DNA of 64,000 nt from a virus (IMGVR_UViG_3300028666_000024:1-64000), one strand, 5' to 3'. Positions 1,594-25,914 are shown, counted from the first letter of the stretch. Notes: generated by a model not told the origin, from the letters alone. A program made the numbers and translations.

Positions 1594-2058
1594 ATGTATG
1601 AAACTCCTTTGAAATTGATTAAAATAACTTCAAACAATTTGATAGTTTGGGAAGTTAATGGTAGAATTATTGATGAAGATACAGCACTTGCTATTTTAAA
1701 AACGGCAGGTGTTGAATACTTTCCAAAAACTTTACAAAATGTTTTTAACCCTTCTGAAAGCTTTACATCTGATTTTAAACCTTCTGAATCTTTTCGTTTC
1801 AAAATTGGAGATGTTGTTATAGTCAATGGAAGATCATCAAATAAAGATGAAATATTTAATGAAAAAGGAATAATTGAAAAAGTTGATAAATATGGTCCGT
1901 GGATATATCTGATAAAACTTATTGCTAGTAATTATATTCCGGGATGGTTTAAGCAGGAGTCTGTATATAGTTTAGAACCAATTCAAAAACCAATTCAAAA
2001 ACCAATTCAAAAACCAATTCAAAAATCTGTAAAAAGAAAATTCTTCTTCAATGATTAA
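1594..2058 (+). CDS. repeat-containing protein with C-terminal KRKFFFND tail
   Basis: ATG at 1594 with GAAAGG RBS (the track start at 1579 is GTG); internal PIQK x4 and PSESF x2 repeats. Confidence 0.6.
   Translation: MYETPLKLIKITSNNLIVWEVNGRIIDEDTALAILKTAGVEYFPKTLQNVFNPSESFTSDFKPSESFRFKIGDVVIVNGRSSNKDEIFNEKGIIEKVDKYGPWIYLIKLIASNYIPGWFKQESVYSLEPIQKPIQKPIQKPIQKSVKRKFFFND
1978..2025. repeat. 12-bp tandem repeat 'ccaattcaaaaa' x4 (encodes PIQK)
   Basis: Read directly. Confidence 0.9.
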
Positions 2059-2071
2059 AAAGGAGTTGTAA

Positions 2072-2248
2072 ATGAAAAGCTTTATATTTGTTTTTGAAAA
2101 TAAAGAAACAAAGAAAGTGTCGGAAAGAAAACCTGTACCTGCAAAAAATCTCAAAGAAGCACAGGAGTTGGCACGAATACTATGTCCTAGATCTAATATA
2201 GTCAAATCAGTTATACAACTATCAAAGGAGAAAACTAAATCTCTTTGA
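2072..2248 (+). CDS. small hypothetical protein (58 aa)
   Basis: AAAAGGAG RBS 8 nt upstream of the ATG; not in the ORF track because it is <60 aa. Confidence 0.5.
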   Translation: MKSFIFVFENKETKKVSERKPVPAKNLKEAQELARILCPRSNIVKSVIQLSKEKTKSL

Positions 2249-2292
2249 AATTTAACTTCGAAAGATTTTGAAAATTCTTTGAAAATAATTCT

Positions 2293-2321
2293 TGACTTTG
2301 ATTGTGAAATGTAGTATATTT
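2293..2321 (+). promoter_or_regulatory. sigma70-like promoter TTGACT-N17-TATATT
   Basis: ttgact ttgattgtgaaatgtag tatatt; no substantial ORF downstream, only a 5-codon MNPPA mini-ORF at ~2405 with a GGAGG RBS. Confidence 0.5.
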
Positions 2322-2580
2322 TAAAGGTAGTTGTTCGGGACCAACCAACCGATGGTTTTATAATACTAATTAAAACTTTATAAATCTATGGAGGATAACA
2401 AGAAATGAATCCACCGGCCTGATAAGAACCCCCTTTAAAATTGTACCCTGAATATTAAACTTGTGATGAATACCCGGAGATGATATACGTCTTCGGGTTT
2501 TTCTTTTTAATCATCTTTCAAACTCTTTCGAAGTCTGCCTTTCAAAGTATCTTTCAAATATTTTTAAATCTAATTTTCAA

Positions 2581-2640
2581 ATCCTTTCAAATCCTTTCAA
2601 ATCCTTTCAAATCCTTTCAAATCCTTTCAAATCCTTTCAA
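2581..2640. repeat. 10-bp tandem repeat 'atcctttcaa' x6
   Basis: Read directly. Confidence 0.9.
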
Positions 2641-2829
2641 ATATTTTAAACCTTTTAAAAGATGTTGCAAACCCTCTAAATCTACTTTGCAAATTTACTT
2701 TTAAAATTTTACAAATAAACAATGGGGCAGATAGAGGGCGGTGTGTAACAGGTGTTACTTGTTAAGTTCTTTAAAATCAAGAGGTTGCAAAGGGATTTTT
2801 CTCACTCTAAAACCAATTTTACAATTCTT

Positions 2830-3025
2830 TTAAATTCAAACAGTTAGGAAGGATTTAAAGTGTTTCAAAATGGAACACTTTAGAAGGATTTAAAAGTGTT
2901 TCAAAATGAAACAGTGTTTCAAAATGGAACACTTTAGAAGGATTTAAAAGTATTGCAGAAGTGTTGCAAACCTTTCTAAAGGATTTAAAGTATTGTAAAC
3001 TGTTTTCAAAATAAAACAGTTACCC
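2830..3025. repeat. Iteron-like cluster of direct repeats and hairpins (agtgtttcaaaatggaacact x2, aggatttaaa(a)g x4, aactgttttcaaaataaaacagtt)
   Basis: Read directly; inside a ~1 kb non-coding stretch, 2330-3340. Confidence 0.6.
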
Positions 3026-3347
3026 GGCGCAACCAATCAACAGAAATGCATTTTGAAATATTAATCCGATAAGTGCTCCGATAAAACATGTTGGGATACA
3101 TATTGAGATTGACAAAGCTTTCCAATATTTTCAATTCTTATTAATTTTCATTTTTAATCCTTAATAAGAAATTATAATCTTTGCAAAAGAACTTAAGGAA
3201 ATCTATTATTAAGATAAATGGTTTCAGACTAATATATTCGAAATCTTTTGAGTTTAAAGCAATTATAATTTTTATTAAATTTAAAATTCTTTACAGGAAT
3301 ACTTTTCAAATATTTTAAAAGGATTTCAAAGTTTTCATTAGAGATAT

Positions 3348-3797
3348 TCATAGACCTGTTCTTTCTTCATCAATTTCTTTTATAGTGTTAAAGAGATTTT
3401 TGGCGAAATTATATTTAGCATCATTTACTTTATTAATATCATTCAAGTCATTGATTTTAAAATATGTAATCCATTTATTCAATCCTGATATTATATTATT
3501 TTGATGAAATGTAAATACAACAGAAGATAATGATGAATTGATAGTAACTTCGGCAATCAGATTACATTTGTAAAAAATCTCCAAATAGTGATTACGATTA
3601 TAAACGGTAAGTGTTTCAGTTTTAAAGATTTTAGAATGATTTAGAGATAAAATCCATTTAAAGAATGTATTTTGAATTTTTTCCAAGAATTCCTTTTCAA
3701 ATTCTTTTTTTCTTCTATCATTTTCTTTTTGTTGATTGATTTTGAATTGACGAGTATTATTTGAAAGTTCTATCAAAAGATTTTCAAGAGTTTTCAT
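3348..3797 (-). CDS. hypothetical protein (~149 aa)
   Basis: ORF; start trimmed to MKTLENL so that ATGA overlaps the upstream gene stop. Confidence 0.45.
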   Translation of the reverse strand: MKTLENLLIELSNNTRQFKINQQKENDRRKKEFEKEFLEKIQNTFFKWILSLNHSKIFKTETLTVYNRNHYLEIFYKCNLIAEVTINSSLSSVVFTFHQNNIISGLNKWITYFKINDLNDINKVNDAKYNFAKNLFNTIKEIDEERTGL

Positions 3798-4048
3798 TCC
3801 AATTCCTTTTTGATTTTGTGAAAGAGGGATGGATGTACTACAGATATTTCTCGATGTGTTGCTTGACATATATCGTTCAGGATATCGGCAAGTTCAGATT
3901 TAGTGAACACCATCAACACATGAACATCTTTTTCGAGTTCATCTTTGATAAATTCTGTTTGTTGGTCTGCACACAATCCGGCGGCATAACCATCATAGTT
4001 TAATTTTTCTTTATAAAATCTTTTCAATAGAAAATTTAAATAATTCAT
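3794..4048 (-). CDS. hypothetical protein (84 aa)
   Basis: ORF with GAAAGGA RBS. Confidence 0.5.
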   Translation of the reverse strand: MNYLNFLLKRFYKEKLNYDGYAAGLCADQQTEFIKDELEKDVHVLMVFTKSELADILNDICQATHREISVVHPSLFHKIKKELE

Positions 4049-4108
4049 TTACAAATCCTTTCAAATTAGTTTCAAGGTTTTCAAGGTTTTCAAATCATTT
4101 TAGAGATA

Positions 4109-5038
4109 TTATTCTCTTATTGCATTAGGGGAGATTGGTACACCATAAGGACTTACCCCTAAGAAGCTGAAAGATATTTGAGTATTGATTGGGAAGAGTG
4201 TTTTGCTATTATCTCTTTCAGTATCCAAGAATCCTCCTCCTACATTGAACTTCACTTGTTTTCCAATCATGTCAGGGGTTCCGCCTTTGACAGATTTGAT
4301 AGTATCATCCCAAGTGAGTTCAACAATCAATCCACCCATTCTACCTTCGTGTTTGCCTTCTCCCGGATATTCACCCACAACAAAACCTTCGTGAGTATAT
4401 TGGGTTTTCCATTTCAAAAGATTTCGAACTCTTTTACATTCATATTTTGAAAGTGGGTTTGCAAACATGAGACCTTCCCAACGTTGTGATTTAGAAAGTT
4501 TTACAGCATTTTGAATATCTTCGATAGAATTTACAGGAGATTGAGTAACATATTTTACGACTGGATTATTCTGTAAATTTGTTATGAAGAGGTGGAAGAG
4601 TTTGATTTGTCTTTTATTCCAATTTTCGTTATTGAAGAAGGGAGATGATAATAATTCAGGAGAAGAGATAGTATCACAAGAGAAAGGTTTATATCCAAAG
4701 ACTTTATATTGGATTTCGTTCCATCTTGAGTCATTGAGGGATTTTTCTTTACCCTGACCACAGATAGACTTAACAATTCCGGTATCATCAGTTTCGTGCC
4801 AGAGTTCACCATCAAGAGGGATTCCTTGCGGGAGATTTTTCAACCACCAATCGGGAGCATTGACAGGTTTTGGTCCTGAATATCTTCCGAGTGTTTCGAG
4901 TTGATATCCATTCCATAGAGTTCTGTGTCCGTTTAATTTTCTGGAATAGAACCAACCGACAAGTTTTTCCATTTGTTCTGTGTTTTTTTCCAGATTGATA
5001 TCAAGACTATGTGCCATCATTGCAGTGAAGGTGCTCAT
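4109..5038 (-). CDS. ATP-dependent polynucleotide ligase-like nucleotidyltransferase (DNA/RNA ligase superfamily)
   Basis: Motif I-like KLNGHR (KxNGxR), motif IV EGLMF, motif V LLKWK; order and spacing match a minimal ligase plus OB domain. Confidence 0.55.
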   Translation of the reverse strand: MSTFTAMMAHSLDINLEKNTEQMEKLVGWFYSRKLNGHRTLWNGYQLETLGRYSGPKPVNAPDWWLKNLPQGIPLDGELWHETDDTGIVKSICGQGKEKSLNDSRWNEIQYKVFGYKPFSCDTISSPELLSSPFFNNENWNKRQIKLFHLFITNLQNNPVVKYVTQSPVNSIEDIQNAVKLSKSQRWEGLMFANPLSKYECKRVRNLLKWKTQYTHEGFVVGEYPGEGKHEGRMGGLIVELTWDDTIKSVKGGTPDMIGKQVKFNVGGGFLDTERDNSKTLFPINTQISFSFLGVSPYGVPISPNAIRE

Positions 5039-5066
5039 GATTTATTTCCTTTCGAGACAAAGAATT

Positions 5067-5231
5067 TTAGTTATCCTCCGGAAAAATACAATAGAGGAAT
5101 GTTATTATCAAACTTATCAGAGATAAAGTTAAAGAAAAAAATAACAAGTCTTTATTATGTGTTAATGCAGTAGCAACCCAAGATCCTGTCAAAAAACCTC
5201 CCCAAATAAATCCAAGAATAACGCTCTTCAT
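5067..5231 (-). CDS. small membrane protein (~54 aa)
   Basis: AAGGAG RBS; hydrophobic segments. Confidence 0.4.
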   Translation of the reverse strand: MKSVILGFIWGGFLTGSWVATALTHNKDLLFFSLTLSLISLIITFLYCIFPEDN

Positions 5232-5435
5232 TTTAAATCTCCTTTGTAAGAATTTCTTCTTTGAAAGTTTTTGTAAATGGACCTTTCCAACCTCGAAGAT
5301 CTGTGAATGTAAACCAGACACAACATATTAAGATACCTTCTTTAGTCAACAATATTTTTTCTATTACCATCCTCGGTCCTCCCTTACTACTACCTTTCAA
5401 TCTAACAATATCACCAACAGCAAGTTTTTTTCATT

Positions 5436-5783
5436 TCAAATCTCCTTTTTCAAATTTTTTTGAAGATATTTTAAAATTGTTTTATGAAGTTTGTTTTGGT
5501 GTTCATTAAGAATTCTTTCATTTCTTGTCTGCCATACCTCATCAATCTTGTTATAAATGTTAAGAACTCTTTGTTGTTGATCTTCTGTTAGTTTTATCCA
5601 AGACGGAAACCAACCATATTTTAAAGAACCCCACACTTTAGTTTTATAACCAATCAAGAAATTACTTCTCCTACCTATTTGAATTTTCTTCCATTTAAAA
5701 TCTCCTTCCTGATTAATTTTGAAGGTTTCTAAAGGAATACTTTCAATCAATTGTAAAATTATTTCTAATTCTTCCTGACTCAT
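5436..5783 (-). CDS. hypothetical protein (115 aa)
   Basis: ORF with AAGGAG RBS; ATGA overlap with the downstream gene. Confidence 0.55.
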   Translation of the reverse strand: MSQEELEIILQLIESIPLETFKINQEGDFKWKKIQIGRRSNFLIGYKTKVWGSLKYGWFPSWIKLTEDQQQRVLNIYNKIDEVWQTRNERILNEHQNKLHKTILKYLQKNLKKEI

Positions 5784-6307
5784 TTTGAAATCTCCTTTAC
5801 AAGAATTTCTTTAAACATCGGCCAAATCTTTTCAAGAAACAACAACAGTTGAAAATTTATTTCCATCACACAGGGAATAGATTCGTAATCATGATACAAA
5901 CATTCACATAATGGACTTTCTACGATACTTTGGCAATAAGTTATTTCTGAATAAAAATCTAAAGAGAATTTAACCCAATTCCAACAATCATATGTTTCTT
6001 CTTTTGTAATTTTTCTTTCCCTGCGATTTCTTATAATATCTTTCAAAATGATTTTTTTAGTTTTATCGGCATTAAATTCTTTTGGAAGATTCATTCCCAA
6101 TTTCTTTATCAAGTAACCTTTATCAAGACTTATCAAGAATCTTTTAATATCTGTTCCCATAAAATTCCAACGATATCTATAATCTCCGTAGTCTGATTGG
6201 ATATCAAGAAATCCATCATCAGAGATTATAATGTTTGCCCACATGGAATATTCTCCACTTCGGATATAATATCTTTCAGAAGATTTCTTTTCAAAGGTAT
6301 AGTTCAT
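5780..6307 (-). CDS. hypothetical protein (175 aa)
   Basis: ORF with overlapping stop/start at both ends. Confidence 0.55.
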   Translation of the reverse strand: MNYTFEKKSSERYYIRSGEYSMWANIIISDDGFLDIQSDYGDYRYRWNFMGTDIKRFLISLDKGYLIKKLGMNLPKEFNADKTKKIILKDIIRNRRERKITKEETYDCWNWVKFSLDFYSEITYCQSIVESPLCECLYHDYESIPCVMEINFQLLLFLEKIWPMFKEILVKEISK

Positions 6308-7314
6308 CAGATCTCTTTCTTTATGAATTGGTTAAAGATTTCAAATTTGTCATATATTAAAATTTCAGATAAACCCACATATCTTATATTTTTAATTTCT
6401 GGAGGGAATATAATTTTCATTTTATTCAATACCTCAGTTGGGATAACAATTTCTTCATCTGCATCGAAAGGAATATTTAAAAACATAGAAAAGAGAGTAA
6501 AAAGAGTAAAAAGATTTTCTTTTTCAATATCTTTTAAATTTAATTTTAAAAACTTTTCAAATAAACACTTTCGAACATCAGAAAGTTTGAAATTATCACC
6601 AAGTTCTTTTTTATAAAGATTATCTCCGGTTTCCTTTATAAAAGAATGAGATTTTCTAAAGTTATAATATTTTGAAGTATTTAGTTGAAGGAAGTTTTCT
6701 TTATCAAAACTATCGAGCCAAACAGTAACATTTTTCTTAATTTCAATTTCATTATGACATCCATCTTTATCCATATATTGATTAATCCGAAGAAGTTGTC
6801 CTTTACCTAGAAAAACCTCTTTATTTGTTATTGATTCATAGATATGTCCGGGTTTGAAATTTTTTATTGGTTTCTCTTTTCTTTTAATATCAACAACACA
6901 TGCATCATTATACAACTTTGAACCAATCAGAATAAGTTTCATCTGTGAGCCAATTATTCCAAAGACAAACTTTCCTTTCAATCTCCCACCTGCATCTATC
7001 CCTTCATTCAGGATAACATCCATCAAGACATCTTCCCGGAGATCATAACGATACTTGTTATTAATCAATATCTTGTATGCTCTTCCACCCTCTCCCCTAT
7101 GTTCTAATGTTTTTATCACAACATCTTCAATCGGAACGTTGTCACAAGGAGTTTGAGCATAGGTATTTTCTTTTCCATTTTTGACCCAACTAAGTGCAGT
7201 TTCAAGGGTTTTGGGATTTGTGGCATCAACCGGGAAAATATCTATTACTTTTTTCCCTTGATAATTTTTATAAATCTTTTCAACGATTATTAATTTCTTT
7301 GGAATTGAGGACAT
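6307..7314 (-). CDS. hypothetical protein (335 aa)
   Basis: Long ORF. Confidence 0.55.
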   Translation of the reverse strand: MSSIPKKLIIVEKIYKNYQGKKVIDIFPVDATNPKTLETALSWVKNGKENTYAQTPCDNVPIEDVVIKTLEHRGEGGRAYKILINNKYRYDLREDVLMDVILNEGIDAGGRLKGKFVFGIIGSQMKLILIGSKLYNDACVVDIKRKEKPIKNFKPGHIYESITNKEVFLGKGQLLRINQYMDKDGCHNEIEIKKNVTVWLDSFDKENFLQLNTSKYYNFRKSHSFIKETGDNLYKKELGDNFKLSDVRKCLFEKFLKLNLKDIEKENLFTLFTLFSMFLNIPFDADEEIVIPTEVLNKMKIIFPPEIKNIRYVGLSEILIYDKFEIFNQFIKKEI

Positions 7315-7389
7315 TTTAAATCTTTTCTTCTTTTAAAAGATTCTTTACAAAGTCTTTAGAATGTTTTGGATTTATAATCATAAAGTTTT

Positions 7390-7674
7390 TCACGATTTAT
7401 TCTTTCTAAACGCAGGAAGTAAAATAATATTACCTAGTTCATCTTTTTTCCAATTGATTTTAAATTTTGAAAGCAACATTTTATAAAGTTTCCAAATTAA
7501 ATCTAACAACAATATTATTGCAAGAATAGGATACGTGATAGGACCGAAGAAAACAAATATTAATAAAATATTTAAGTCACTAGTTGTTAGAGTATCTCCA
7601 CAAATAAGATTGTTTATGATTATAAAACCACCACCACCAATCAAAATCCAAAGTAATATAATTTCAACTATCAT
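7390..7674 (-). CDS. small membrane protein (94 aa)
   Basis: Very hydrophobic ORF. Confidence 0.5.
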   Translation of the reverse strand: MIVEIILLWILIGGGGFIIINNLICGDTLTTSDLNILLIFVFFGPITYPILAIILLLDLIWKLYKMLLSKFKINWKKDELGNIILLPAFRKNKS

Positions 7675-7928
7675 AGAGCAGTCTCCTTTAAATGTTTTGA
7701 GTTTGTTTTGAGCAGAGTAGAATACTTTCTTTTTCTTCGAAGCTCTTTGATATTTTTATAGAACTCAATACTTTGTTTTGTCATTTCATCTTCAAACTCA
7801 AGATTGGAAAGAACTTTTCTACGATTATCTGCAAAGGATGTAGTTATATCTCCAGTTTGAAGCATAGATATTCCATCAAGATAACGATAATGAAACGGCA
7901 GAGAAAATTTGGTTGTTAGGTCAGACAT
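7671..7928 (-). CDS. hypothetical protein (85 aa)
   Basis: ORF with ATGA overlap with the downstream gene. Confidence 0.5.
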   Translation of the reverse strand: MSDLTTKFSLPFHYRYLDGISMLQTGDITTSFADNRRKVLSNLEFEDEMTKQSIEFYKNIKELRRKRKYSTLLKTNSKHLKETAL

Positions 7929-8055
7929 GATACTTTTCTTTGATAAATTGTTTAGAATACCTTTTTTAAATCTCTTTAGAAGCCTTTTAATCCATTTTAA
8001 AGTCTTCAGACGTATCTAAAGAGGTTTAAAGACTTCTGATTGATTATAGAGCCTC

Positions 8056-8562
8056 TTAGGACTGTTTAATTGAAATCTCTTCCTTTTTAACGGCAAAGTG
8101 AGGGAGAAAGAATCCATAACCATTTTTGCAAGGACGAATCAGATTCATTTGATTTTTGAGAAGAGTGTGTTCTGGATAGAGATCATGTCCATGAATAACT
8201 TCTTCATCCCATTCTATTCCGTAAAAGATTTTGCCATAGACACCGAGGATAGTTCCCTTCATTCCCGGTTTAATATTAGGACTTAGACAAGTTTCTTCTA
8301 TACATCTGACACGATCTCCCGGTTGATATATCACTGTGGGGATTTGACAGAGTTTCTTATTGTAATCTATCATCTCATGTGATATTGGATGATTAATAAG
8401 TTTTGGAAATCGTGGAAATCGTGTGAATAAATTCCACAAGATAATCGGCCACAAGAAAGCAACTAAACCAAAATTCTTTTTAACTCCAACCAACCAACAG
8501 AGGATCATCATTACCAATCCGATAATAATATAAATTTCTATAAAATGACAAAAGAAATGCAT
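8056..8562 (-). CDS. membrane-anchored hypothetical protein (~168 aa)
   Basis: Start at MHFFCHF with an AAGGAG RBS; one TM segment plus a soluble domain. Confidence 0.5.
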   Translation of the reverse strand: MHFFCHFIEIYIIIGLVMMILCWLVGVKKNFGLVAFLWPIILWNLFTRFPRFPKLINHPISHEMIDYNKKLCQIPTVIYQPGDRVRCIEETCLSPNIKPGMKGTILGVYGKIFYGIEWDEEVIHGHDLYPEHTLLKNQMNLIRPCKNGYGFFLPHFAVKKEEISIKQS

Positions 8563-8587
8563 TTTAAACTCCTTCTTGTTAAAATTG

Positions 8588-8956
8588 TTAATCTTCGAAA
8601 AAGAACTTCCGTTTCTTTTCAATTTTATCTTTAGAATTTTCAGAAATTATTTTAAATCTTTTCAAATTTAATTCTGATTTGAAATTTGTTTTCTTTATAA
8701 AGTTTAATGACTGTGCTAATAAATCTAACGCCTGTGGATTATCAAATTTAAAGATTACTGTCTTATCTCCTGCAACTTGCAAACCATTTTTAACATCTTT
8801 AATTGATTTTTCTATAGATGTAGATGTTTCTGTTATGATTAAACAAATATCATCTACTCCTCCCTGATTCCTTTTTGCTGTATAGAAACTGATACCATCA
8901 TTTTTATCTGCTTCAAATACAAAGGTGAGGATGTTGTTTTCTTTTTTAATTGTCAT
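8588..8956 (-). CDS. hypothetical protein with C-terminal KRKFFFED tail (122 aa)
   Basis: ORF. Confidence 0.55.
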   Translation of the reverse strand: MTIKKENNILTFVFEADKNDGISFYTAKRNQGGVDDICLIITETSTSIEKSIKDVKNGLQVAGDKTVIFKFDNPQALDLLAQSLNFIKKTNFKSELNLKRFKIISENSKDKIEKKRKFFFED

Positions 8957-8988
8957 AGTTCTGATTCTCTTTGCTTTCTAACTTTCCG

Positions 8989-9933
8989 TTATCCCGGCAT
9001 TCCAACGTAAGGCTCAGGTTTCAAAAGTTTTTCAATTTTATCAAGTTTTTCGAAGACATCTTTTGAACTTATAAATTCATAATCTGTTTGAGAAATTTCA
9101 GAACCCATCTTTTCAAAACTTCCAAAGTGTTCTTCAAGAATCTCCTGCAACAAGATTTTTAAATCTCCCTGTCTTGGGAATTGTGAAAGATTGGATTTAT
9201 TTTTGATTTCTTCAAGATTTGACATTCTCTTTTGAAATTCATTATCAAATCTGTCGAAGTCTCCCCATTCACCTTTCCGCATCAACTTACATTCTTCTTT
9301 GTTTCTTTCAAGGTCAATGTCATTTGTAAGAAGGATCTGTTCGAGTTGGTCAATGAGTCTGAGAGTATGATAGGCCATTTTCACATCATAACCATGTTTA
9401 GCAACCAAATTTTTTCGTTCTTCAGTTTCAGGATTACGCTGTCTGATACGATGCATTTGTCCGTTGGCATATCCCTTAAATGCATGGAAGGTTTTCATTG
9501 ACAAGAACTTCTGACGATTATCACGGAGCATCCATCCCATTTTTGTTCCAACAGTAACCAGAGGACGCTTGACAAAAAGTATCTCAACAAGATTTGGAGA
9601 ACCTTTCAGTCCCGCATGGATAAAGAATTCAATGAGAGAAACCCACTCCGCTTCAAACATCTTTCCATCTATGTTGACTTTTCCGTCTTTTCCTTTGAGT
9701 TCTTTTCTGGAGAATGCTGGAACCTGATCAAATCCTAAAATAAATCCAAACTTCTGAGGGAAAAGATGTTCGGCCTTTGGGAGAATTATTCCGAGCAGGT
9801 CATAATCGGAAGTAGGAGTTTGACAACCATATGCCTGAGAACCACCTATTGTTTCAAGCATCAGGTTATTAACCATCCACTGTTCGGATTTTTCAAACTT
9901 GCCGTGCTGAGAATACCATTGAGTGTAGTTCAA
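8989..9933 (-). CDS. Pol-beta superfamily nucleotidyltransferase (314 aa)
   Basis: GGSQAYGCQTPTSDYDLLG (hG[GS]x9-13DxD) followed by a helical C-domain; TTG start overlaps the upstream stop (TTGA). Confidence 0.5.
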   Translation of the reverse strand: MNYTQWYSQHGKFEKSEQWMVNNLMLETIGGSQAYGCQTPTSDYDLLGIILPKAEHLFPQKFGFILGFDQVPAFSRKELKGKDGKVNIDGKMFEAEWVSLIEFFIHAGLKGSPNLVEILFVKRPLVTVGTKMGWMLRDNRQKFLSMKTFHAFKGYANGQMHRIRQRNPETEERKNLVAKHGYDVKMAYHTLRLIDQLEQILLTNDIDLERNKEECKLMRKGEWGDFDRFDNEFQKRMSNLEEIKNKSNLSQFPRQGDLKILLQEILEEHFGSFEKMGSEISQTDYEFISSKDVFEKLDKIEKLLKPEPYVGMPG

Positions 9934-10079: not shown

Positions 10080-10087
10080 TATAATAC

Positions 10088-10653: not shown

Positions 10654-11292
10654 TTAATCTTCAGTAAAAAAGAATCTTCTACGTTTTAAAATAATCTTTT
10701 CAATTGGAATTTCAACAGATTTTTCAACAGATTTTTCAAGATTTTTAATTTTCTCTTCAAGAATTTTAATTTTCTCTTCAAGATTTCTATTTTCTATTTT
10801 TAAATTATATAAATCCTTTGATTTATTTTCTTCTACTAATTTTTTTAAAAAATCCTCTACATTGGAAGGTATACCATAAGAAGGCATATCATACATAATA
10901 TCACCTGTTTGATTGGAAGGTATACCATAAGAAGGCATATCATACATAATATCACCTGTTTGATTGGAAGGTATACCATAAGAAGGCATATCATACATAA
11001 TATCACCTGTTTGATTGGAAGGTATACCATAATCAGGCATATCATACCTAATATTACCTGTATTGGTTGGTCCTTTTATATTTAAATCATTAAAAAAATT
11101 CTGAATATCTACATTGGAAGGTATACCATAATCAAGCATATTAGAACTCTTCAATTTAATAGCACCTGTTTGCATTGTTAATTGTTCAGAAGATTTTTGT
11201 AACTCATCTAAATCAATGGCAACTTCTGGAAACCTTTTCATTCCTTGAGAACCATACTTTTGAAGTTCTTGAAAACTTTTTGGTGTTGTCAT
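10654..11292 (-). CDS. repeat protein (17-aa unit x4, YDMPSYGIPSNQTGDIM) with C-terminal KRRRFFFTED tail
   Basis: ORF with a 51-bp DNA tandem repeat at 10862-11040. Confidence 0.6.
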   Translation of the reverse strand: MTTPKSFQELQKYGSQGMKRFPEVAIDLDELQKSSEQLTMQTGAIKLKSSNMLDYGIPSNVDIQNFFNDLNIKGPTNTGNIRYDMPDYGIPSNQTGDIMYDMPSYGIPSNQTGDIMYDMPSYGIPSNQTGDIMYDMPSYGIPSNVEDFLKKLVEENKSKDLYNLKIENRNLEEKIKILEEKIKNLEKSVEKSVEIPIEKIILKRRRFFFTED

Positions 11293-11324: not shown

Positions 11325-12116
11325 TTATCCTATCATAAAATCATTAGGGGCACTTTCCATTTTGCAATCATCAAGAGCAGATTCATATTCCTGCTTGCCG
11401 TCTTCATAGATTGCATCACCGTTAAGAGACAATCCATCAGGAAGTGAACCAGAATATTTACCAAGAATATAACGACCCCAAAGCATTTTTGTCCGACCAG
11501 TACACATCTTCTTAACTGTTGGATGATTATATAACTCACAATCATCTAATCTTCGATATGTAATAAGAACTCCTGTGTATTGTTGATCTGGAGTTGGAGT
11601 TATTCGAATGATTTCTTTACCGGGAATATATTTAGCTCGGAATTGTTTACCAAAAATCTCATCAATATTTTTTATATATTGTTGAGCTATTGTATAATTT
11701 GTAAGTGTCAAACCATCATTAACTCCCATAGCACCACCCGGACCACCCGGATAATTACCCTGAACCACCCAACTGTCATGCAGCAACATATGTGTAGGAG
11801 TGAATAATGTATTAATTCCATCAAGTCCAACTGCAACCGAAAAATCATATATTGCTTCAACCCCACTTAATGTATTTCCATTTGAATCTTTAACAGCAGA
11901 TAAAGGATAATCCGTCTGTCCAACAGTTGTGGTAAACGTAATATATTCTGTGCATGTTCCATCCTCATATGCATACCTACTAAAAGTCTGACAACAATCT
12001 ATCACACATTGAGAAATTGTATCTTCTGGAAGTTCAACGTTGATAGCAGGAGCACCGAGCATAGTCTGAATATAACTTACCATATCACCACTTGTTGTTA
12101 TTGTCTTAAAAACCAT
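11325..12116 (-). CDS. hypothetical protein (264 aa), possibly structural
   Basis: ATG at 12116 with a GGAG RBS (the track start is TTG at 12128). Confidence 0.5.
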   Translation of the reverse strand: MVFKTITTSGDMVSYIQTMLGAPAINVELPEDTISQCVIDCCQTFSRYAYEDGTCTEYITFTTTVGQTDYPLSAVKDSNGNTLSGVEAIYDFSVAVGLDGINTLFTPTHMLLHDSWVVQGNYPGGPGGAMGVNDGLTLTNYTIAQQYIKNIDEIFGKQFRAKYIPGKEIIRITPTPDQQYTGVLITYRRLDDCELYNHPTVKKMCTGRTKMLWGRYILGKYSGSLPDGLSLNGDAIYEDGKQEYESALDDCKMESAPNDFMIG

Positions 12117-12274
12117 ATTTATCTCCAATTGTTTATTTCAATAACTATTTATAATTCTTTCAAACCTTTCATAAAAACTTCTCAACCCTCCTTTTAAAAA
12201 TTTATTTGTAAAGATTTGATTTAAAATATTTTACAAAAGATTTTAAAATTCTTTCTCTATGAAATAATATCTAT

Positions 12275-12546: not shown

Positions 12547-13305
12547 TTATTTACTCCTCTTATCATTTTTGATTGTCAGTTTGGAGGTATTACAACTCCC
12601 GACATATCCACCAGATAATGTATTGATTGTCAGTTTGGAGGTCTCATAACTCCGGACATCTCCACTAGACACTGTATTGATTGTCAGTTTGGAGGTATCA
12701 AAACTCCGGACATCTCCACTAGACACTGTATTGATTGTCAGTTTGGAGGTATTATAACTCCCGACATCTCCACCAGACACTGTATCGATTGTCACTTTGG
12801 AGGTATCATAACTCCAGACATTTTCACCAGATAATGTATTGATTGTCAGTTTGGTGGTATCATAACTCAGGACATATCCACCAGATAATGTATTGATTGT
12901 CAGTTTGGATTTATTATAACTCCTGACATATCCAGCAGACACTGTATTGATTTTAACATTACCGGATAAAATAATCAAATTCAATTTGGTGAACTCAATT
13001 GGAATTTTTGTATCTTTTCGAATGATATGAGTTTTCGCCCATTCGTTCATTTTATCTCGACAAGCAATTTCTGCTTCTTTGATATTAAACCATTCCGGCA
13101 GAAAATCCTGATCTGTTTTAAATATCCAATTCTCTATAGGAGTTCGATAATCATTATCCTTTGGAGAAATTTCTATTCGAACAAAATCAGGTTTCTTTGT
13201 TTTGTCGTTCAATTTATTTTCCGATATGATATCCTCATGACTATCAGAATATTTGGAAAATAAAACATCATTCTGAGTTACGATGAAAGAGGCTGAGTTA
13301 CACAT
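12547..13305 (-). CDS. paralog family member 1: MCNSASF N-domain plus 7 x 18-aa repeats
   Basis: Conserved N-terminal ~125 aa, 18-aa repeats (KLTINTVSGGDVRSYDTS-like), C-terminal TIKNDKRSK; conserved AAAGGACATTAATTAAT-ATG upstream. Confidence 0.8.
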   Translation of the reverse strand: MCNSASFIVTQNDVLFSKYSDSHEDIISENKLNDKTKKPDFVRIEISPKDNDYRTPIENWIFKTDQDFLPEWFNIKEAEIACRDKMNEWAKTHIIRKDTKIPIEFTKLNLIILSGNVKINTVSAGYVRSYNKSKLTINTLSGGYVLSYDTTKLTINTLSGENVWSYDTSKVTIDTVSGGDVGSYNTSKLTINTVSSGDVRSFDTSKLTINTVSSGDVRSYETSKLTINTLSGGYVGSCNTSKLTIKNDKRSK

Positions 13306-15738: not shown

Positions 15739-16557
15739 TTATTTACTCCTCCTATCATTTTTGATTGTCAGTTTGGAGGTCTCATAACTCTGGACATATC
15801 CACCAGCACCAGACACTGTATCGATTGTTAGTTTGGAGGTATCACGACTCTGGACAACTCCACCAGATAATGTATCGATTGTCACATTGGAGGTCTCATA
15901 CCTCCTGACATATCCACCAGACACTGTATCGATTGTCACATTGGAGGTATCATAACTCCGGACATCTCCACTAGACACTGTATTGATTGTCAGTTTGGAG
16001 GTATTATAACTCCTAACATCTCTACCAGACACTGTATCGATTGTCACTTTGGAGGTATTATAACTCCAGAGATCTCCACCAGACACTGTATCGATTGTCA
16101 CTTTGGAGGTATCATAACTCCCGACATATCCACCAGATATTGTATTGATTATCAGTTTGGAGGTATTATAACTCCGGACATCTCCACCAGATAATGTATC
16201 AATTGTCACATTACCAGATAAAATAATCAAATTCAGTTTGGTTAACTCAATTGGAATTTTTGTATCTTTTCGAATGATATGAGTTTTCGCCCATTCGTTT
16301 ATTTTATCTCGACAAGCAATTTCTGCTTCTTTGTTGTTAAACCATTCCGGCAGAAAATCCTGATCTGTTTTAAATATCCAATTCTCCATAGGAGTTCGAT
16401 AATCATTATCCTTTGGAAAAATTTCTATTCGAACAAAATCCGGTTTCTTTGTTTTATCGTTTAATTTATTTTCCGATATGATATCTTCATGACTATCTGA
16501 ATATTTGGAAAAGAAAACATCATTTTGAGTTACGATGAACGAGGCTGAGTTACACAT
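15739..16557 (-). CDS. paralog family member 2 (8 repeats)
   Basis: Same architecture as member 1. Confidence 0.8.
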   Translation of the reverse strand: MCNSASFIVTQNDVFFSKYSDSHEDIISENKLNDKTKKPDFVRIEIFPKDNDYRTPMENWIFKTDQDFLPEWFNNKEAEIACRDKINEWAKTHIIRKDTKIPIELTKLNLIILSGNVTIDTLSGGDVRSYNTSKLIINTISGGYVGSYDTSKVTIDTVSGGDLWSYNTSKVTIDTVSGRDVRSYNTSKLTINTVSSGDVRSYDTSNVTIDTVSGGYVRRYETSNVTIDTLSGGVVQSRDTSKLTIDTVSGAGGYVQSYETSKLTIKNDRRSK

Positions 16558-19456: not shown

Positions 19457-19517
19457 TAGATTTATGCTCCCTTAGAAAAAATTCAGCTTCAGCTAGTTTA
19501 CTTCTACTTATTCTCCT

Positions 19518-19787
19518 TTAAGGTTTTTCTATTATAACCCAATAACCAACAATAAATCTATTTTCCCCATTCTCTTTACCACACTCACAAACAGCCTTTA
19601 TTTTAAAGTCTGGATGTTGATAGAGCCAATGTGAAAGAGAAATTCCAAAATCATCTCTAAAACAATTTGAAAATAAATAAACTCCACAACCATAATCAAT
19701 AGGTTTTGTAAAGTCTGTTTCAGCAAAGATACTGGTAAACAACACAACAAGAATAATTAATACTTTATGTATTAGAGACATCGACAT
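19518..19787 (-). CDS. small secreted Cys-containing protein
   Basis: N-terminal signal-peptide-like hydrophobic segment. Confidence 0.4.
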   Translation of the reverse strand: MSMSLIHKVLIILVVLFTSIFAETDFTKPIDYGCGVYLFSNCFRDDFGISLSHWLYQHPDFKIKAVCECGKENGENRFIVGYWVIIEKP

Positions 19788-20940: not shown

Positions 20941-21038
20941 TTATATGCTCCTATTTTCAAAATTAATTTTATAACATTTATAATGTCTTGAAGTTGTCAA
21001 CTTTTGCAACTGTTCTAAAGATAATTTTGAAATTTTAT

Positions 21039-21959
21039 TTACTCCAACCTATTGTCATTTTTGATTGTCAGTTTGGAGGTATCACGACTCTGGACATCTC
21101 CACCAGATAATGTATCGATTGTTAGTTTGGAGCTATGATAACTCCTGACAACTCCACCAAACACTGTATCGATTGTCAGTTTGGAGGTATCACAACTCTG
21201 GACATATCCACTAGATAATGTATTGATTGTCATTTTGGAGGTCTCAAAACTCCAGACATCTCCACCAGACAATATATCAATTGTTAGTTTGGAGGAATGA
21301 TAACTCAGGACATCTCCACCAGACAATATATCAATTGTCAGTTTGGAGGTATGATGACTCAGGACACATCCACTATATAATGTATTGATTGTCACATTGG
21401 AGGTATCAAAACTCCGGACATTTCCACCAGATAATGTATTAATTGTCAGTTTGGAGGTCTCATAACTCAGGACATCTCCACCAGACATTTTATCGATTGT
21501 CACATTGGAGGTATCATAACTCCGGACATATCCACCAGACACTGTATTGATTGTCAGTTTGGAGGTATCATAACTCCGGACATATCCACCAGATAATGTA
21601 TCAATTGTCACATTACCAGATAAAATAATCAAATTCAATTTGGTGAACTCAGCCGGAATTTTTGTATCTTTTCGAATGATATGAGTTTTCGCCCATTCGT
21701 TCATTTTATCTTGACAGGCGATTTCTGCTTCTTTGATATTAAACCATTCCGGCAGAAAATTCTGATCTGTTTTAAATATCCAATTCTCCATAGGAGTTCG
21801 ATAATCAGTATCCTTTGGAGAAATTTCTATTCGAACAAAATCAGGTGTATCTGTTTTGTCATTCAATTTATTTTCCGATATGATATCTTCATGACTATCT
21901 GAATATTTGGAAAACAAAACATCATTTTGAGTTACGATGAAAGAGGCAGAGTTACACAT
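21039..21959 (-). CDS. paralog family member 3 (11 repeats)
   Basis: Same architecture; C-terminus is NDNRLE. Confidence 0.8.
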   Translation of the reverse strand: MCNSASFIVTQNDVLFSKYSDSHEDIISENKLNDKTDTPDFVRIEISPKDTDYRTPMENWIFKTDQNFLPEWFNIKEAEIACQDKMNEWAKTHIIRKDTKIPAEFTKLNLIILSGNVTIDTLSGGYVRSYDTSKLTINTVSGGYVRSYDTSNVTIDKMSGGDVLSYETSKLTINTLSGGNVRSFDTSNVTINTLYSGCVLSHHTSKLTIDILSGGDVLSYHSSKLTIDILSGGDVWSFETSKMTINTLSSGYVQSCDTSKLTIDTVFGGVVRSYHSSKLTIDTLSGGDVQSRDTSKLTIKNDNRLE

Positions 21960-22061
21960 ATTGATTAATGTCCTTTTAAATAATAACCTGCTCCGAGTTG
22001 TGAGGAATCCTGATCACATTCGTAACTCAGGAGTAAAACCTCAGAGCAGGTTATTTGTTCT

Positions 22062-23723
22062 TTACTCTTCCTTCTTAGACAGACCACTGAATTGACTTGA
22101 CTTCTTGATGGGTTTCGTTATCGCCGACGCAGTTTTGAAAGCATCTGCATTGTAAACATAAACCCCACCATTGTTTGCCGAAAGATACTTCCCGCTTGCT
22201 GACTGCCGAAGAGCTGTAATCTTTTCAGCATAGGTCTTACTGATCGGAACGATATAGTTTTCACCGGCATCCTTCGGCGTGAATGGGTCTATCTCACTAT
22301 CCAATCGGTTGGCGATGTCACATGCATTTCTTATTTCTGCACCTGTCCAACCTTCATCATCAGGACGAACATCCTTGACGTTTGGATATTTCTTCAACCA
22401 TATCTCCCATATCTTTGCCCGCTCTGCTGCATTGGGAAGGTCAAAGAACCACTGCCCGAAAGTAAACCGGCGCTGGAGTTCGGGAGGAATTGCAGCAGCA
22501 CTATTACAGGAAGCAATCCAGAAGGTATTTTTTCCGGCCAAAGCCTTGATGATTGACAGGGCACGTTTAGTTCTCTCCCCGGTTTCACCGACCAAACTTC
22601 CCTTGAGAGCAGACAGGTCAAGAGTAATCGTTGGAACACCACCATAGGCACCGAGAGCAACCGAAGAAAGAGATTTTCCAGAACCAGCAGGACCGATTGC
22701 AATAGTCCCGGAACACTGCTCCTCTTCCATAAAGGTAAGCATTGCACCGAGTATCTCTTGTGAAGTACCACTGGTATCACCAACACCACCGTTTGCATAA
22801 CCGGCACCGGCGATTGACTTCTCGATTTCTTCAATCCGGATAACGGCATTGGGAGGATTTTTTCCAGTCATGATGCGCCGAGCAAATTCCTTGAAAGGAT
22901 CAAGTCCTCCGATATCTTCGGGTCTCATTCCGGACATATCGACCGTCAGACCTGCAACGCTGTTGATGGTTTGAGTCCAACGCTTGCGGAGAATCTCAGG
23001 TTCAAAACCCTTATCAGGACTGATTGACAGAGACACACTCTGTTCCGTTGCATAGGCAGACAGACCGCGAGTTGACTGAAGGGATGTCTTCGTTGCATCT
23101 GCATCAATCGTAACACCAATCTTTTCCAATTCCGCGCGAGCATCGTTCAGCGTACTGTTAATTATCTTTTCCCTTGCTTCATCATTGGGAACACCATCAT
23201 CGATTTGAAAAAGATCTTGTGAAAGAGATGGAGGAATCGTTGTTCCCTGTGCTGTGAGAAGGATAAGCAGTTTTCCACTCTGTTTGAAAATATCGCGAAG
23301 GTTTGCTATTGCCTGTTCAACCGCGACTTCCTTGAGTATACGCTGTGCTCCAAGAATACAAACAACGATTTTTGCAGGGTCGAAAGAACCCTCATCACTC
23401 TCAACCATGGTCCATTTCTTTTCGTCAAGCAGGACGTTCAGTGCATCAACCGGCTGGAGCAACATTGCCGGGATAGGAATCATTGGAGGATTGGGATCAA
23501 AGGAACCGGGATCTTTAAAGAGGATTAATTTTTCCACAACGGGTTTGCCTGATTCATTAACCGACTGATAACCCCTCACCATATCCCATGCAATGATCGG
23601 GGTTTTTGCCGACAAATTTTCGGCTATGTCCTTCAGACTGGCAAAATCATCTGAAGTATTAACTATTGCCAGCGGAACACCAACCAACCTTGCCCGTTTA
23701 ATCTCATCAATAAGGATACTCAT
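22062..23723 (-). CDS. AAA-type ATPase (553 aa), GC-rich, with atypical Walker B
   Basis: Walker A GPAGSGKS; SRH-like CNSAAAIPPELQRRF; no canonical hhhhDE motif; local GC clearly above the genome background. Confidence 0.6.
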   Translation of the reverse strand: MSILIDEIKRARLVGVPLAIVNTSDDFASLKDIAENLSAKTPIIAWDMVRGYQSVNESGKPVVEKLILFKDPGSFDPNPPMIPIPAMLLQPVDALNVLLDEKKWTMVESDEGSFDPAKIVVCILGAQRILKEVAVEQAIANLRDIFKQSGKLLILLTAQGTTIPPSLSQDLFQIDDGVPNDEAREKIINSTLNDARAELEKIGVTIDADATKTSLQSTRGLSAYATEQSVSLSISPDKGFEPEILRKRWTQTINSVAGLTVDMSGMRPEDIGGLDPFKEFARRIMTGKNPPNAVIRIEEIEKSIAGAGYANGGVGDTSGTSQEILGAMLTFMEEEQCSGTIAIGPAGSGKSLSSVALGAYGGVPTITLDLSALKGSLVGETGERTKRALSIIKALAGKNTFWIASCNSAAAIPPELQRRFTFGQWFFDLPNAAERAKIWEIWLKKYPNVKDVRPDDEGWTGAEIRNACDIANRLDSEIDPFTPKDAGENYIVPISKTYAEKITALRQSASGKYLSANNGGVYVYNADAFKTASAITKPIKKSSQFSGLSKKEE

Positions 23724-23890
23724 AACAACCTCCTGATTTTGTTTTAGTGGTGATCAATTCCTCACCCCCTTAAAATACAACATCCCGGAACTAAATGCAA
23801 GTATTTTTAAAAGAAAATTTCAAAATGTTGTGAATCTTTTTTAAAAGTTCTAACATCTTGAATTTCAAAGACTTACAAAAACTATGAATT

Positions 23891-24325
23891 TTACTGTCTG
23901 TGAGGACGAGTTTTGAAAATCTTCTTATAGAGTACACGATTCAATTTTGCGCACCAGAGTTTATCCGAGGAGATTTTTCGTTCAATCTTTGGAATGTCTT
24001 TAAGGAGTGCAAAGTAAATATCAACGAGCCAGTCATGATAGGCGATGTTATCATCAATCCTTTTTGATGCAGCATTACGCCATGTTAAGAGATCTTCCTT
24101 ATCGTGTTGGATGAGAGTCTTGTCCCTCTTATCATCAACATTTTTTTCAAGGATCTCTGGATAAGGTTTACTGAGTTCTTCATGTAAAGCAGCCATTGGT
24201 GGATTAACATTCATAGCATAAATTTCTGGATAAGGTTTACTGAGTTCTTCATGTAAAGCAGCCATTGTGACCGACCGATTATCAAATGTCTTCTTAACTA
24301 CTGTCTTGATTTTCTTCTTCGTCAT
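23891..24325 (-). CDS. hypothetical protein with duplicated 17-aa segment (PPMAALHEELSKPYPEI x2)
   Basis: ORF plus a DNA tandem duplication. Confidence 0.5.
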   Translation of the reverse strand: MTKKKIKTVVKKTFDNRSVTMAALHEELSKPYPEIYAMNVNPPMAALHEELSKPYPEILEKNVDDKRDKTLIQHDKEDLLTWRNAASKRIDDNIAYHDWLVDIYFALLKDIPKIERKISSDKLWCAKLNRVLYKKIFKTRPHRQ

Positions 24326-24362
24326 AATTGTTTACCTTTCTTAAAGTTTAAAGTGTTTGAAA

Positions 24363-25511
24363 TTAAATTTTATCTTCTGATTTTGAATCTTCTGCATCTT
24401 GTTTTAAAAGATACTCAGGGTTTACTGCCTTAAAACTAATGCTTTGATCATAAGTTCTCCACACAATGCCTTCTCTTTGGCGCTTTAACAACTTACTATC
24501 TCCAACACTCCATTTGATAATATCATCAACAGTGTCAGGAATTTGAACCTCAGTACCAAGCACAGGAACCATTTTTAAATTAAGTTGGAAGCAAATATTT
24601 CTCAACTGATCTAAGGAGTATCGTTCCCCGGTCTTGATGTTAATAATATTAAAGATGTAAAAATCCAATTGAGAAAGTTTATAAATATTTTTTTGAATTC
24701 CCGGCCCGATAACCTCTCCCTGAATTGCTAACTGAATTTTTGTCTTCTTGTAATAATCTTTCAAAATCTGTTTTAAATTATAAATCTTTGCAACCTGCGA
24801 CCAGTTAGAATTATCCCTTTCAGATTTTCTAACGTTATGAGAACAGATTCCAAATTCACTTACAAACCAGCCGAGTTTTTTAAACCACCAAGTACCGGAC
24901 TGTCCTTCTAACTTCTCAGTGAGATAATATAACTTTGACTTATCTTTGACAAGGAAAGGAAGATTCTGAATTCTCTCCTCATCTGTGCGTTTGATAAATC
25001 CCGGCCATCCTTTTGTGTTTCTGTTGCAATAATTTCTATACCATTTAAAACGTTTCAAATACTTATAGTGCCATGCTCTCTTTTTAGGAGTTGTTGTATT
25101 ACTCTCCCTATCAGATTGAGATTCATACTTTACAATTCCCATAAGTTCTGTGAGATCATCACCCTCTTTGTAAGACTTTGGAATTTTATTTCCAATCTGT
25201 TTTAAACAGTTTTCAACATTGGGAAGGGAAATAAGAAGTCCCTCACTGATTTGCTTCTTCAGTTTTATAATCTTAACACGATACTTACGAGACAACATAA
25301 AGGCAAAGTATTCAATTTTTGGAACAATGCTATCTGTTTCAATATAGAGAGCAAGATCACCAACTTTAAATTCATCCTTATTCACCACGCAGTGCCATCC
25401 CAACACTGTAACAACTTCAATTTTATCTGCACCGGGAATTGTATCAAGAGAAATAATCTTCTCAACATGTGCTAATACTCTTCCAGACTTCTCGATTATT
25501 TCTTCGCTCAT
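24363..25511 (-). CDS. RNA ligase, DraRnl/Rnl5-like, with N-terminal tRNA-binding-type OB fold
   Basis: N-terminal GADKIEVVTVLGWHCVVNKDEFKVGDLALYIE (Myf/Trbp111-like OB pattern); motif I TEKLEGQSG, motif IV EGIVWR, motif V FKAVN..LLK. Confidence 0.55.
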   Translation of the reverse strand: MSEEIIEKSGRVLAHVEKIISLDTIPGADKIEVVTVLGWHCVVNKDEFKVGDLALYIETDSIVPKIEYFAFMLSRKYRVKIIKLKKQISEGLLISLPNVENCLKQIGNKIPKSYKEGDDLTELMGIVKYESQSDRESNTTTPKKRAWHYKYLKRFKWYRNYCNRNTKGWPGFIKRTDEERIQNLPFLVKDKSKLYYLTEKLEGQSGTWWFKKLGWFVSEFGICSHNVRKSERDNSNWSQVAKIYNLKQILKDYYKKTKIQLAIQGEVIGPGIQKNIYKLSQLDFYIFNIINIKTGERYSLDQLRNICFQLNLKMVPVLGTEVQIPDTVDDIIKWSVGDSKLLKRQREGIVWRTYDQSISFKAVNPEYLLKQDAEDSKSEDKI

Positions 25512-25530
25512 AAATTCAATCCTTTCTTAT

Positions 25531-25914
25531 TTAATCGTAAAAGAAAAACTTTCTACGCTTTATAATTAATTCTTGTTTCGGTTGAATTAATTCTTGTTTC
25601 GGTTGAATTATCTTCCTGAAATATTCACTTGTATTATTATTAATCGATAACATATTCATTGTATATAGTTTAACATCAGGTAATATATTATAATATTTTC
25701 CTAATAGTGTCATTGAATAATTAAAAACTACTTGTTTATCAAATTGAATTACTGCATATGTATCATATTGAAAACGATATTCATCTTTAAGTATTCCAAC
25801 AATCATTCCAATCATTCCAACTTCAAATATTATTCTACCTCCAATTTTATTTATATTCTCGTTGTAATTTTTTATTACTTCAAGTTTATCTCCAAGGTTA
25901 TATTTATTAATCAT
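25531..25914 (-). CDS. hypothetical protein with C-terminal RRKFFFYD tail (127 aa)
   Basis: ORF; IQPKQEL x2 repeat before the tail. Confidence 0.55.
   Translation of the reverse strand: MINKYNLGDKLEVIKNYNENINKIGGRIIFEVGMIGMIVGILKDEYRFQYDTYAVIQFDKQVVFNYSMTLLGKYYNILPDVKLYTMNMLSINNNTSEYFRKIIQPKQELIQPKQELIIKRRKFFFYD

Follow-up and report, generated by a model that had tools for sequence, protein, structure and literature searches.

Introduction

In bacteriophage T4, the C-terminal clamp-binding epitopes of gp43, gp55, and gp33 are interchangeable, and the gp55 epitope is joined to the body of the protein by a divergent, length-variable, and probably unstructured linker (PMC2988020). The C-termini read SLDFLFG in gp43, SLDFLYEAND in gp55, and NTLDFLL in gp33, and a cyanophage gp43 ends with STLDDFFS. 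Late transcription of the T4 gp55 type is activated by the sliding clamp. Here we describe a 64,000-nucleotide stretch of viral DNA, IMGVR_UViG_3300028666_000024:1-64000 (hereafter the window), in which four otherwise unrelated small proteins end with a common tail, i.e., a basic patch, three phenylalanines, and a terminal aspartate, and we compare this tail with terminal peptides known from other systems.

SSB (ending with DDDIPF) and the T7 proteins gp2.5 and gp4 have acidic C-terminal tails that serve hub docking in replication. Encapsulin cargo is recognized by C-terminal cargo-loading peptides, and the capsid-targeting sequence of T4 is N-terminal and cleaved. In Escherichia coli, the clamp peptide of the polymerase III alpha subunit is the extreme C-terminus EQVELEFD, and the basic-aromatic peptides of the PCNA- and beta-clamp-interacting motif APIM, such as RWLVK and RFSLK, bind the beta clamp; APIM binds PCNA too (PMC7261172).

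Results

Four proteins share a non-random C-terminal tail

The tail has the consensus K/R-R-K/R-F-F-F-x(1-2)-D and a free C-terminus. All four open reading frames (ORFs) and tails of the original prediction were present where it had placed them: protein 1 (positions 1594-2058, plus strand) ends with KRKFFFND, protein 2 (8588-8956, minus strand) with KRKFFFED, protein 3 (10654-11292, minus strand) with RRRFFFTED, and protein 4 (25531-25914, minus strand) with RRKFFFYD. The six-frame translation of the window holds exactly four matches to [KR]{3}FFF, and each of the four lies two or three residues before the stop codon of a long ORF that represents a real gene. Given how the residues of 96 non-overlapping ORFs are composed, [KR]3FFF would be expected 0.005 times anywhere, and 3e-6 proteins would be expected to end with [KR]3FFFx(1-2)D. 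Shuffling the residues within each protein 2000 times gave a mean count of 0.0135 and never more than 1. The tail is thus non-random and far above chance.

The window is AT-rich, with a GC content of 29-39% across 4-kb windows, and the concern that such a motif arises by chance in AT-rich proteomes had been raised together with the original prediction. It is answered by the absence of this C-terminus from every plausible gene in 80 related AT-rich phage loci (1.04 Mb) and, in the whole of IMG/VR, by only one long ORF that ends with a match, which encodes an unrelated protein. The claim that the bodies of the four proteins are unrelated was also upheld, since we found no significant pairwise similarity among them apart from the tail and the low-complexity linker.

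Searches of Pfam, PHROGs, and NCBIfam returned nothing significant for any of the four proteins. Protein 1 had only SH3-like matches, all sub-threshold, and no true homologue among 1.84 billion representatives; protein 2 was itself the sole match in 5.8 billion proteins; and no relative of protein 4 was present in IMG/VR. Single-sequence AlphaFold2 predictions, made with no alignments, reached a predicted local distance difference test score of 35 for protein 2 and 45 for protein 4. As far as tested, the four tail proteins appear to be ORFans.

The tail is maintained at the protein level

The tail codons are AAA AGA AAA TTC TTC TTC AAT GAT in protein 1 (2032-2055, plus strand), AAA CGG AAG TTC TTT TTC GAA GAT in protein 2 (8591-8614, minus strand), CGT AGA AGA TTC TTT TTT ACT GAA GAT in protein 3 (10657-10683, minus strand), and CGT AGA AAG TTT TTC TTT TAC GAT in protein 4 (25534-25557, minus strand). 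All differences among the 18-nt cores are either synonymous or exchange lysine for arginine (AAA/AGA/CGT/CGG, with AAG also used, and TTC/TTT). The earlier statement that the underlying DNA is not conserved therefore needs to be qualified, as 18-nt cores that encode the same residues are necessarily similar. When one mismatch was tolerated, a degenerate DNA pattern recovered the four tail sites and one mismatched site in the window, where exact out-of-frame or intergenic copies of the tail core were absent. Across five tails, i.e., these four and one from a related phage described below, phenylalanine is invariant at 15 of 15 positions, although leucine, isoleucine, and tyrosine codons are equally AT-rich, and the arginine at position -2 before FFF and the terminal aspartate are invariant as well. 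TTC makes up seven of the 12 phenylalanine codons in the tails, compared with 25% genome-wide (p = 0.015), which breaks up the T runs as if these were avoided. As had been proposed, the tail is maintained at the protein level, and its synonymous or lysine/arginine differences and the lack of exact stray DNA copies are evidence of selection there.

Several other genes of the window (242-607, 5436-5783, 6307-7314, and also 5780-6307) end with K(K/R)EI or KEISK. These endings are a by-product at the DNA level, arising where the last codons also contain the AAGGAG ribosome-binding site (RBS) for the following gene; the FFF tail differs in that the next RBS comes after it without overlap. These endings set a local precedent for the rival explanation that KRKFFF is only the translation of a nucleic-acid signal, such as an A-rich stretch passing into a T-rich one, a slippery site, or a signal for termination or coupling. 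In keeping with it, lysine or arginine codons followed by phenylalanine codons make a purine-rich and then a T-rich run, and the RBS of the next gene lies within 10-25 nt after three of the four tails. Such a signal would, however, hardly tolerate basic codons that vary among AAA, AAG, AGA, CGT, and CGG, mixed phenylalanine codons, and T runs broken by TTC, and it has no copies out of frame, between genes, or on the other strand. Moreover, the gene for protein 3 and its counterpart in the related phage have no coupled downstream gene, but an early-type promoter in its place. A nucleic-acid signal is essentially excluded.

Linkers vary in length while the tail stays fixed

The tandem-repeat linkers described before three of the tails were confirmed as perfect or near-perfect repeats of the DNA. 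Protein 1 has a 12-nt unit repeated 4.2 times (PIQK x4; 1976-2025, plus strand) and protein 4 a 21-nt unit repeated 2.2 times (IQPKQEL x2; 25564-25610, minus strand), in both with copies 100% identical, whereas protein 3 has a 51-nt unit repeated 4.1 times (10861-11070, minus strand), which encodes a 17-aa unit with YGIPSN. Protein 2 is without a repeat linker. Prolines occur in four of the five linkers. In a 99.8%-identical contig, the tails of proteins 1, 2, and 3 are kept, but protein 1 has three PIQK units instead of four and protein 3 has two 17-aa units fewer, which shortens it from 212 to 178 aa. The number of repeats thus varies between strains with unchanged tails, so that linker length is free and the tail is fixed.

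The neck protein encoded next to protein 3 has 30 homologues. The closest, in L155/L156 (GC content of 27-29%), is 81% identical, and there the nucleotide homology to the window ends exactly at the stop codon of the neck (gp13) gene. The next gene in L155 encodes a protein of 94 aa that ends with ...QKNKRKFFFEDD and thus carries the tail KRKFFFEDD, and in a BLASTP comparison of this protein with protein 3 only the nine tail residues align. The counterpart would be a product of either extreme divergence or non-orthologous replacement, and in both cases selection appears to have retained the tail. Absence from orthologues had been named as a finding that would speak against the motif, and the motif is retained in L155/L156. 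The more distant relatives, with neck proteins 56% identical or less, show no such tail in the DNA at hand.

A DNA scan of IMG/VR with the KRK pattern had no match, and a looser pattern that covers three of the four tails had 29 matches, of which only one was at the end of a long ORF. This one was rejected as an unrelated tail-tube-like protein, and the other 28 as noise. In pattern scans of the JGI metagenomes and the GTDB bacterial genomes, there was only noise among the matches listed, and the at least 120 listed from bacterial genomes formed no coherent family. No relative of this phage was among the IMG/VR matches, nor among the metagenome matches listed. When a profile of the tail alone was tested locally, the true tails scored 17-22 bits, with E values of 43-1300, which lie above a cutoff of E <= 10. 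A profile search of the PDB with the tail found no chain that carries the motif, and in the papers searched neither the motif string nor an "FFF motif" was found described as a natural motif. The motif appears to be confined to a narrow lineage.

Among the relatives, we found no other tail common to several proteins beyond the C-terminus of gp13 (...PxDFFxG). The neck proteins of this clade, i.e., the one encoded at 11325-12128 (minus strand) and those of 80 related loci, end with ...ES-x-P-x-DF(F/Y)-x-(G/A). This ending superficially resembles the clamp epitope SLDFLFG of T4 polymerase and is probably a structural contact. Two proteins ending with FF that are encoded beside gp55 in cyanophage BUCT-ZZ01 were considered as additional clamp clients and rejected, since one is tail-tube-like and the other belongs to the baseplate.

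Transcription units of the tail genes

Proteins 1, 2, and 4 are encoded in units behind sigma-70-like promoters, while protein 3 would belong to a T4-type late unit. The octamer TATAAATA, which is the late-promoter consensus of T4, was counted 25 times in the window, compared with 8.8 expected occurrences, and is placed 15-40 nt ahead of genes for structural proteins (neck, tail fibre, gp25-like, hub, and tape measure); the sites upstream of structural genes include those at 12146, 47147, 50044, 55801, 58153, and 62449 (minus strand). This excess and placement indicate that this deep-branching T4-like phage very probably has a gp55-type late system. Elements of the form TTGACT-17 nt-TATATT with identical hexamers lie at 934-906 (minus strand), 2292-2320 (plus strand), 10474-10446 (minus strand), and 10595-10567 (minus strand), and probably represent the early promoter type of the phage.

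The gene for protein 1 (154 aa, with an alternative GTG start at 1579) comes second in a short unit of three genes, which has a sigma-70-like promoter at 1143-1170 and a strong terminator at 2472-2498; the tail of protein 1 is followed by the stop codon and then by the RBS of the next gene. Three non-coding tandem arrays near this operon, at 1-127 (11 nt x11.5, TCTTTCAAAGT), 960-1041 (35 nt x2.3), and 2575-2642 (10 nt x6.8, TTTCAAATCC), may be iterons or regulatory repeats. The gene for protein 2 (122 aa) is directly downstream of an RlaP-family gene (8989-9933) in a region served by promoters of the TTGACT-17-TATATT type. Protein 4 (127 aa) is encoded by the first gene behind a sigma-70-like promoter at 26044-26017 (11 of 12 matches), and 20 nt after its stop codon an RNA ligase gene (24363-25511) starts.

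Protein 3 (212 aa) is acidic, with an isoelectric point of 4.9, and a gap of 33 nt separates its gene from the gp13-like neck gene on its upstream side (11325-12128, minus strand). The neck gene is preceded by TATAAATA at 12146-12153, which argues that protein 3 is expressed late. An early-type TTGAC promoter is found 3' of the gene for protein 3 and also 3' of its counterpart in L155, where it is a TTGACA-like element. Residues ~55-145 of protein 3 hold five copies of the unit with YGIPSN, and a heptad-like repeat (EEKIKIL/EEKIKNL, KSVEKSVE) lies between these copies and the tail. YGIPSN, which is itself repeated, could act as another linear motif. An obvious coiled coil was seen in protein 3 alone among the four bearers.

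The phage and other features of the window

The source is assigned to an uncultured myovirus of the T4 superfamily, as judged by its gp13, gp25, gp53, and T4 baseplate and sheath families. The window encodes gp13-type neck, gp25-, gp53-, and T4-baseplate-type proteins, a tape measure, and tail fibres, and the sheath and the terminase follow just past its right end. It also holds six tRNAs, an NAD salvage pair, and an RNA-repair set consisting of RtcB, a cREC receiver domain, two RNA ligases, and RlaP. A megablast search of the window against INPHARED found no match and nothing close; the identity to cultured phages is at most 33% for the sheath and at most 27% for the neck. Three assemblies contain this phage, with the longest contig of 169,231 bp, and the sequence covered here amounts to only ~74 kb, compared with a genome size of at least 169 kb.

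The 553-aa AAA ATPase encoded at 22062-23723 (minus strand) has a single AAA domain at residues ~340-500. Its gene segment is locally richer in GC (39% compared with ~32%), its sole full-length relative in a cultured phage is the "ATPase" of Tunturiibacter phage Tunturi_3 with 30% identity, and it matches PHROG 8638 of unknown function.

Repeats are also found in genes other than those for the tail proteins. The tape-measure protein (59995-62418, minus strand) has 807 aa compared with 784 aa in another assembly of this phage (L004, 11048-13402); the difference is a change in repeat number, and the flanking DNA is otherwise 100% identical. Six paralogous genes, at 12547-13305, 15739-16557, and 21039-21959 (minus strand) and at 40345-41109, 42680-43501, and 43494-44306 (plus strand), share a conserved N-terminal domain (MCNSASFIVTQNDV...), behind which come 7-10 copies of an 18-aa (54-nt) unit (SGGDVRSYDTSKLTINTV), and have a weak match to Pfam DUF2807. 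Metagenome contigs of this phage end at these paralogues, which indicates that these genes break assemblies. A perfect 300-nt direct repeat (29870-30169 and 32180-32479) stands on both sides of a DNA methyltransferase gene (30475-32091). It copies the 5' end of an SPFH/band-7 gene, with the truncated second copy at 32170-32469, and looks like a recent insertion or duplication.

Discussion

The reading that we favor, and that we hold to be somewhat probable, is that the tail is a lineage-specific short linear motif which docks to a protein and is carried on a flexible linker. Otherwise unrelated, fast-evolving small proteins would be tethered through it to a single common partner. The three phenylalanines would enter a pocket of hydrophobic or aromatic character, the basic patch would contact an acidic rim, and the terminal aspartate together with the carboxylate of the chain itself would be read by basic residues. 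The likeliest partner would be the sliding clamp, either a phage clamp of the gp45 type or the host beta clamp, although we propose this only tentatively, by analogy with T4. The original prediction had already spoken of a short linear docking motif, though it did not name the clamp-binding C-termini of T4 gp43, gp55, and gp33, which are the closest precedent. The features that mark such a motif stand, i.e., its occurrence beyond chance, its maintenance at the protein level, its retention in the nearest relative, and the length-variable linkers.

Several findings weigh against this view. T4 gp43, gp44, gp45, gp55, and gp62, used as phmmer queries, had no match among the ORFs of the window, the adjoining 10 kb, and the loci of 84 relatives, and none of the four tail proteins is detectably gp33 or gp55 or a recognizable protein of replication or transcription. 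The tails do not match the clamp epitope of T4 and cyanophages, [ST]LD(F/D)(L/F)F, because the basic patch replaces Ser/Thr-Leu-Asp. The AlphaFold2 models are too poor, so that the disorder of the linkers is deduced from the sequence only. The tail was not present in the DNA fragments at hand of L158 and L159 (neck 53-54% identical) and L157 (46%), nor in the DNA at hand of 80 IMG/VR loci with necks 20-49% identical, and this absence in distant relatives counts against docking to a core interface of replication or transcription, which would be more widely conserved.

The free C-terminal [KR]3-FFF-x-D could instead be read by a dedicated receptor other than the clamp, e.g., the 553-aa AAA ATPase or a host machine, which we consider conceivable but doubtful. 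New ORFans would then be plugged in by acquiring eight codons, and the tail would be part of an undescribed address-label system in tailed phages. As a candidate for this receptor, the AAA ATPase gained no support, as it matched no solved structure and no characterized (unfoldase) family. The same enzyme, whose gene is 1.8 kb from that of protein 4, or a host AAA+ protease (Lon-like, ClpXP, or FtsH) could recognize the tail as a C-terminal degron that gives its bearers a short, timed lifetime. The tail is terminal, exposed, and rich in aromatic residues, Lon prefers aromatic-rich segments, and ClpX recognizes the basic MuA-type C-terminus. Known C-terminal degrons, however, end with non-polar (LAA) or basic (RRKKAI) residues and the acidic variant ssrA-DD blocks ClpXP, whereas all tails end with aspartate and so differ from the ssrA- and MuA-like types; the arginine at -2, FFF, and the terminal aspartate are kept more strictly than degrons commonly require, the late gene of one bearer stands beside a structural gene, and the AAA ATPase lacks a match to a solved structure or a characterized unfoldase family. 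We therefore regard a degron as quite improbable. A peripheral membrane anchor, in which the basic patch would bind anionic head groups and the three phenylalanines would enter the inner leaflet, is unlikely as well. It would suit the composition of three to four basic residues followed by three phenylalanines, which recalls the basic-plus-aromatic membrane-targeting sequences of MinD and FtsY; designer peptides combining K/R with FFF are described in the literature as membrane-active or self-assembling amphiphiles, and protein 2 is encoded amid genes for small membrane proteins with hydrophobic N-terminal segments (8056-8562, 7390-7674, and 5067-5321). But the amphipathic targeting sequences of the MinD/FtsA/FtsY type are helices of 8-15 residues with swappable hydrophobic residues, a net positive charge, and no acidic terminus, and the tail, with a core of six residues, is too short for such a helix. 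Lipid anchors tolerate swaps, while the tail has phenylalanine at all 15 positions and never leucine, isoleucine, tryptophan, or tyrosine; the arginine at -2 is just as invariant, and an anionic membrane would repel both the terminal aspartate, which never varies, and the free carboxylate.

The tail might also act as a sticker for self-association, with cation-pi and pi-pi contacts of KRK-FFF among the bearers or with nucleic acid in a phage factory or compartment. The sticker-plus-spacer architecture and the literature on K/R-FFF strings as self-assembling, cation-pi adhesive peptides would agree with this, but with one sticker per chain the valency is one unless the bodies oligomerize, and a coiled coil is obvious in protein 3 alone. 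Positional invariance and a fixed distance from the C-terminus are likewise unexpected for stickers that depend on composition, and we consider this function highly improbable. Least credible among these functions is a ligand of a host chaperone or RNA polymerase, i.e., a DnaK-type site, with basic residues on the flanks of a hydrophobic core, that recruits Hsp70 or a mimic of a sigma segment at the RNA polymerase core. It derives from the likeness between the RpoH box QRKLFFNLR of sigma-32 (RK-LFF-N) and the end of protein 1 (RK-FFF-N-D). DnaK disfavors acidic residues and prefers leucine in its central pocket, and there is no reason why such a site should be terminal.

Most phage genes are ORFans that offer no experimental handle, and the tail provides one for four of them at once, as the identity of its partner would place all tail bearers in a pathway. 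If the partner were the clamp, the clamp "toolbelt" in phages of the T4 superfamily would carry many more accessory proteins than the three that T4 is known to have, and the epitope would be fully rewritable within a lineage, in co-evolution with the clamp pocket. If it were another protein, the tail would represent a new modular targeting signal in phages. In either case, the motif could be used as a portable tag.

Comparison with known terminal peptides

The clamp epitope of T4 resembles the tail most closely in its arrangement. In both, a motif near the C-terminus is found on several unrelated proteins of one phage, here on four and on one more in L155. The T4 epitope lies 0-4 residues from the C-terminus, compared with two or three residues between FFF and the stop codon in our proteins, and its variable linker is paralleled by perfect repeats before three of the tails, with copy numbers that vary between strains. 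The present phage is also a member of the T4 superfamily with TATAAATA late promoters. In sequence, the two have nothing in common beyond the aromatic cluster and the acidic end: [KR]3-FFF-x-D with a basic N-terminal flank is found here, in contrast to [ST]-L-D-F-L-[FYL] with an acidic or polar flank. The bearers differ too, being ORFans here and a polymerase, a sigma factor, and a co-activator in T4.

Peptides that bind ring clamps are generally short and fill a pocket of the clamp with aromatic or hydrophobic residues, and in this the tail is like them. Its position at the extreme C-terminus and its ending F-x-D resemble EQVELEFD of the polymerase III alpha subunit, but none of the tails has glutamine at the position required by the bacterial beta-clamp motif (QL[SD]LF or QxxLxF). 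Of the APIM consensus [KR]-[FYW]-[LIVA]-[LIVA]-[KR], the tail fits positions 1 and 2, whereas positions 3 and 4 are phenylalanine and position 5 is not basic. With SSB and T7 gp2.5 and gp4 it has in common a terminal peptide, a key aromatic residue, and a disordered linker, although the order is reversed, as an acidic run precedes phenylalanine there and a basic run precedes FFF and aspartate here; moreover, the hub bears the tail in those systems, while many clients bear it here. Cargo-loading peptides are likewise short terminal tags behind flexible linkers on unrelated proteins, and this phage has a capsid of the HK97 fold, but their consensus differs, three of the four bearers are behind early-type promoters, and packaging is known from no bearer.

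The statement that no named motif matches the tail held for the definitions compared, as the tail falls outside those of the T4 clamp, bacterial clamp, APIM, SSB, membrane-targeting, and degron motifs. A terminal docking peptide shared by phage proteins is known as a kind; the sequence of the present one, its ORFan bearers, and its partner are what is new in this phage.

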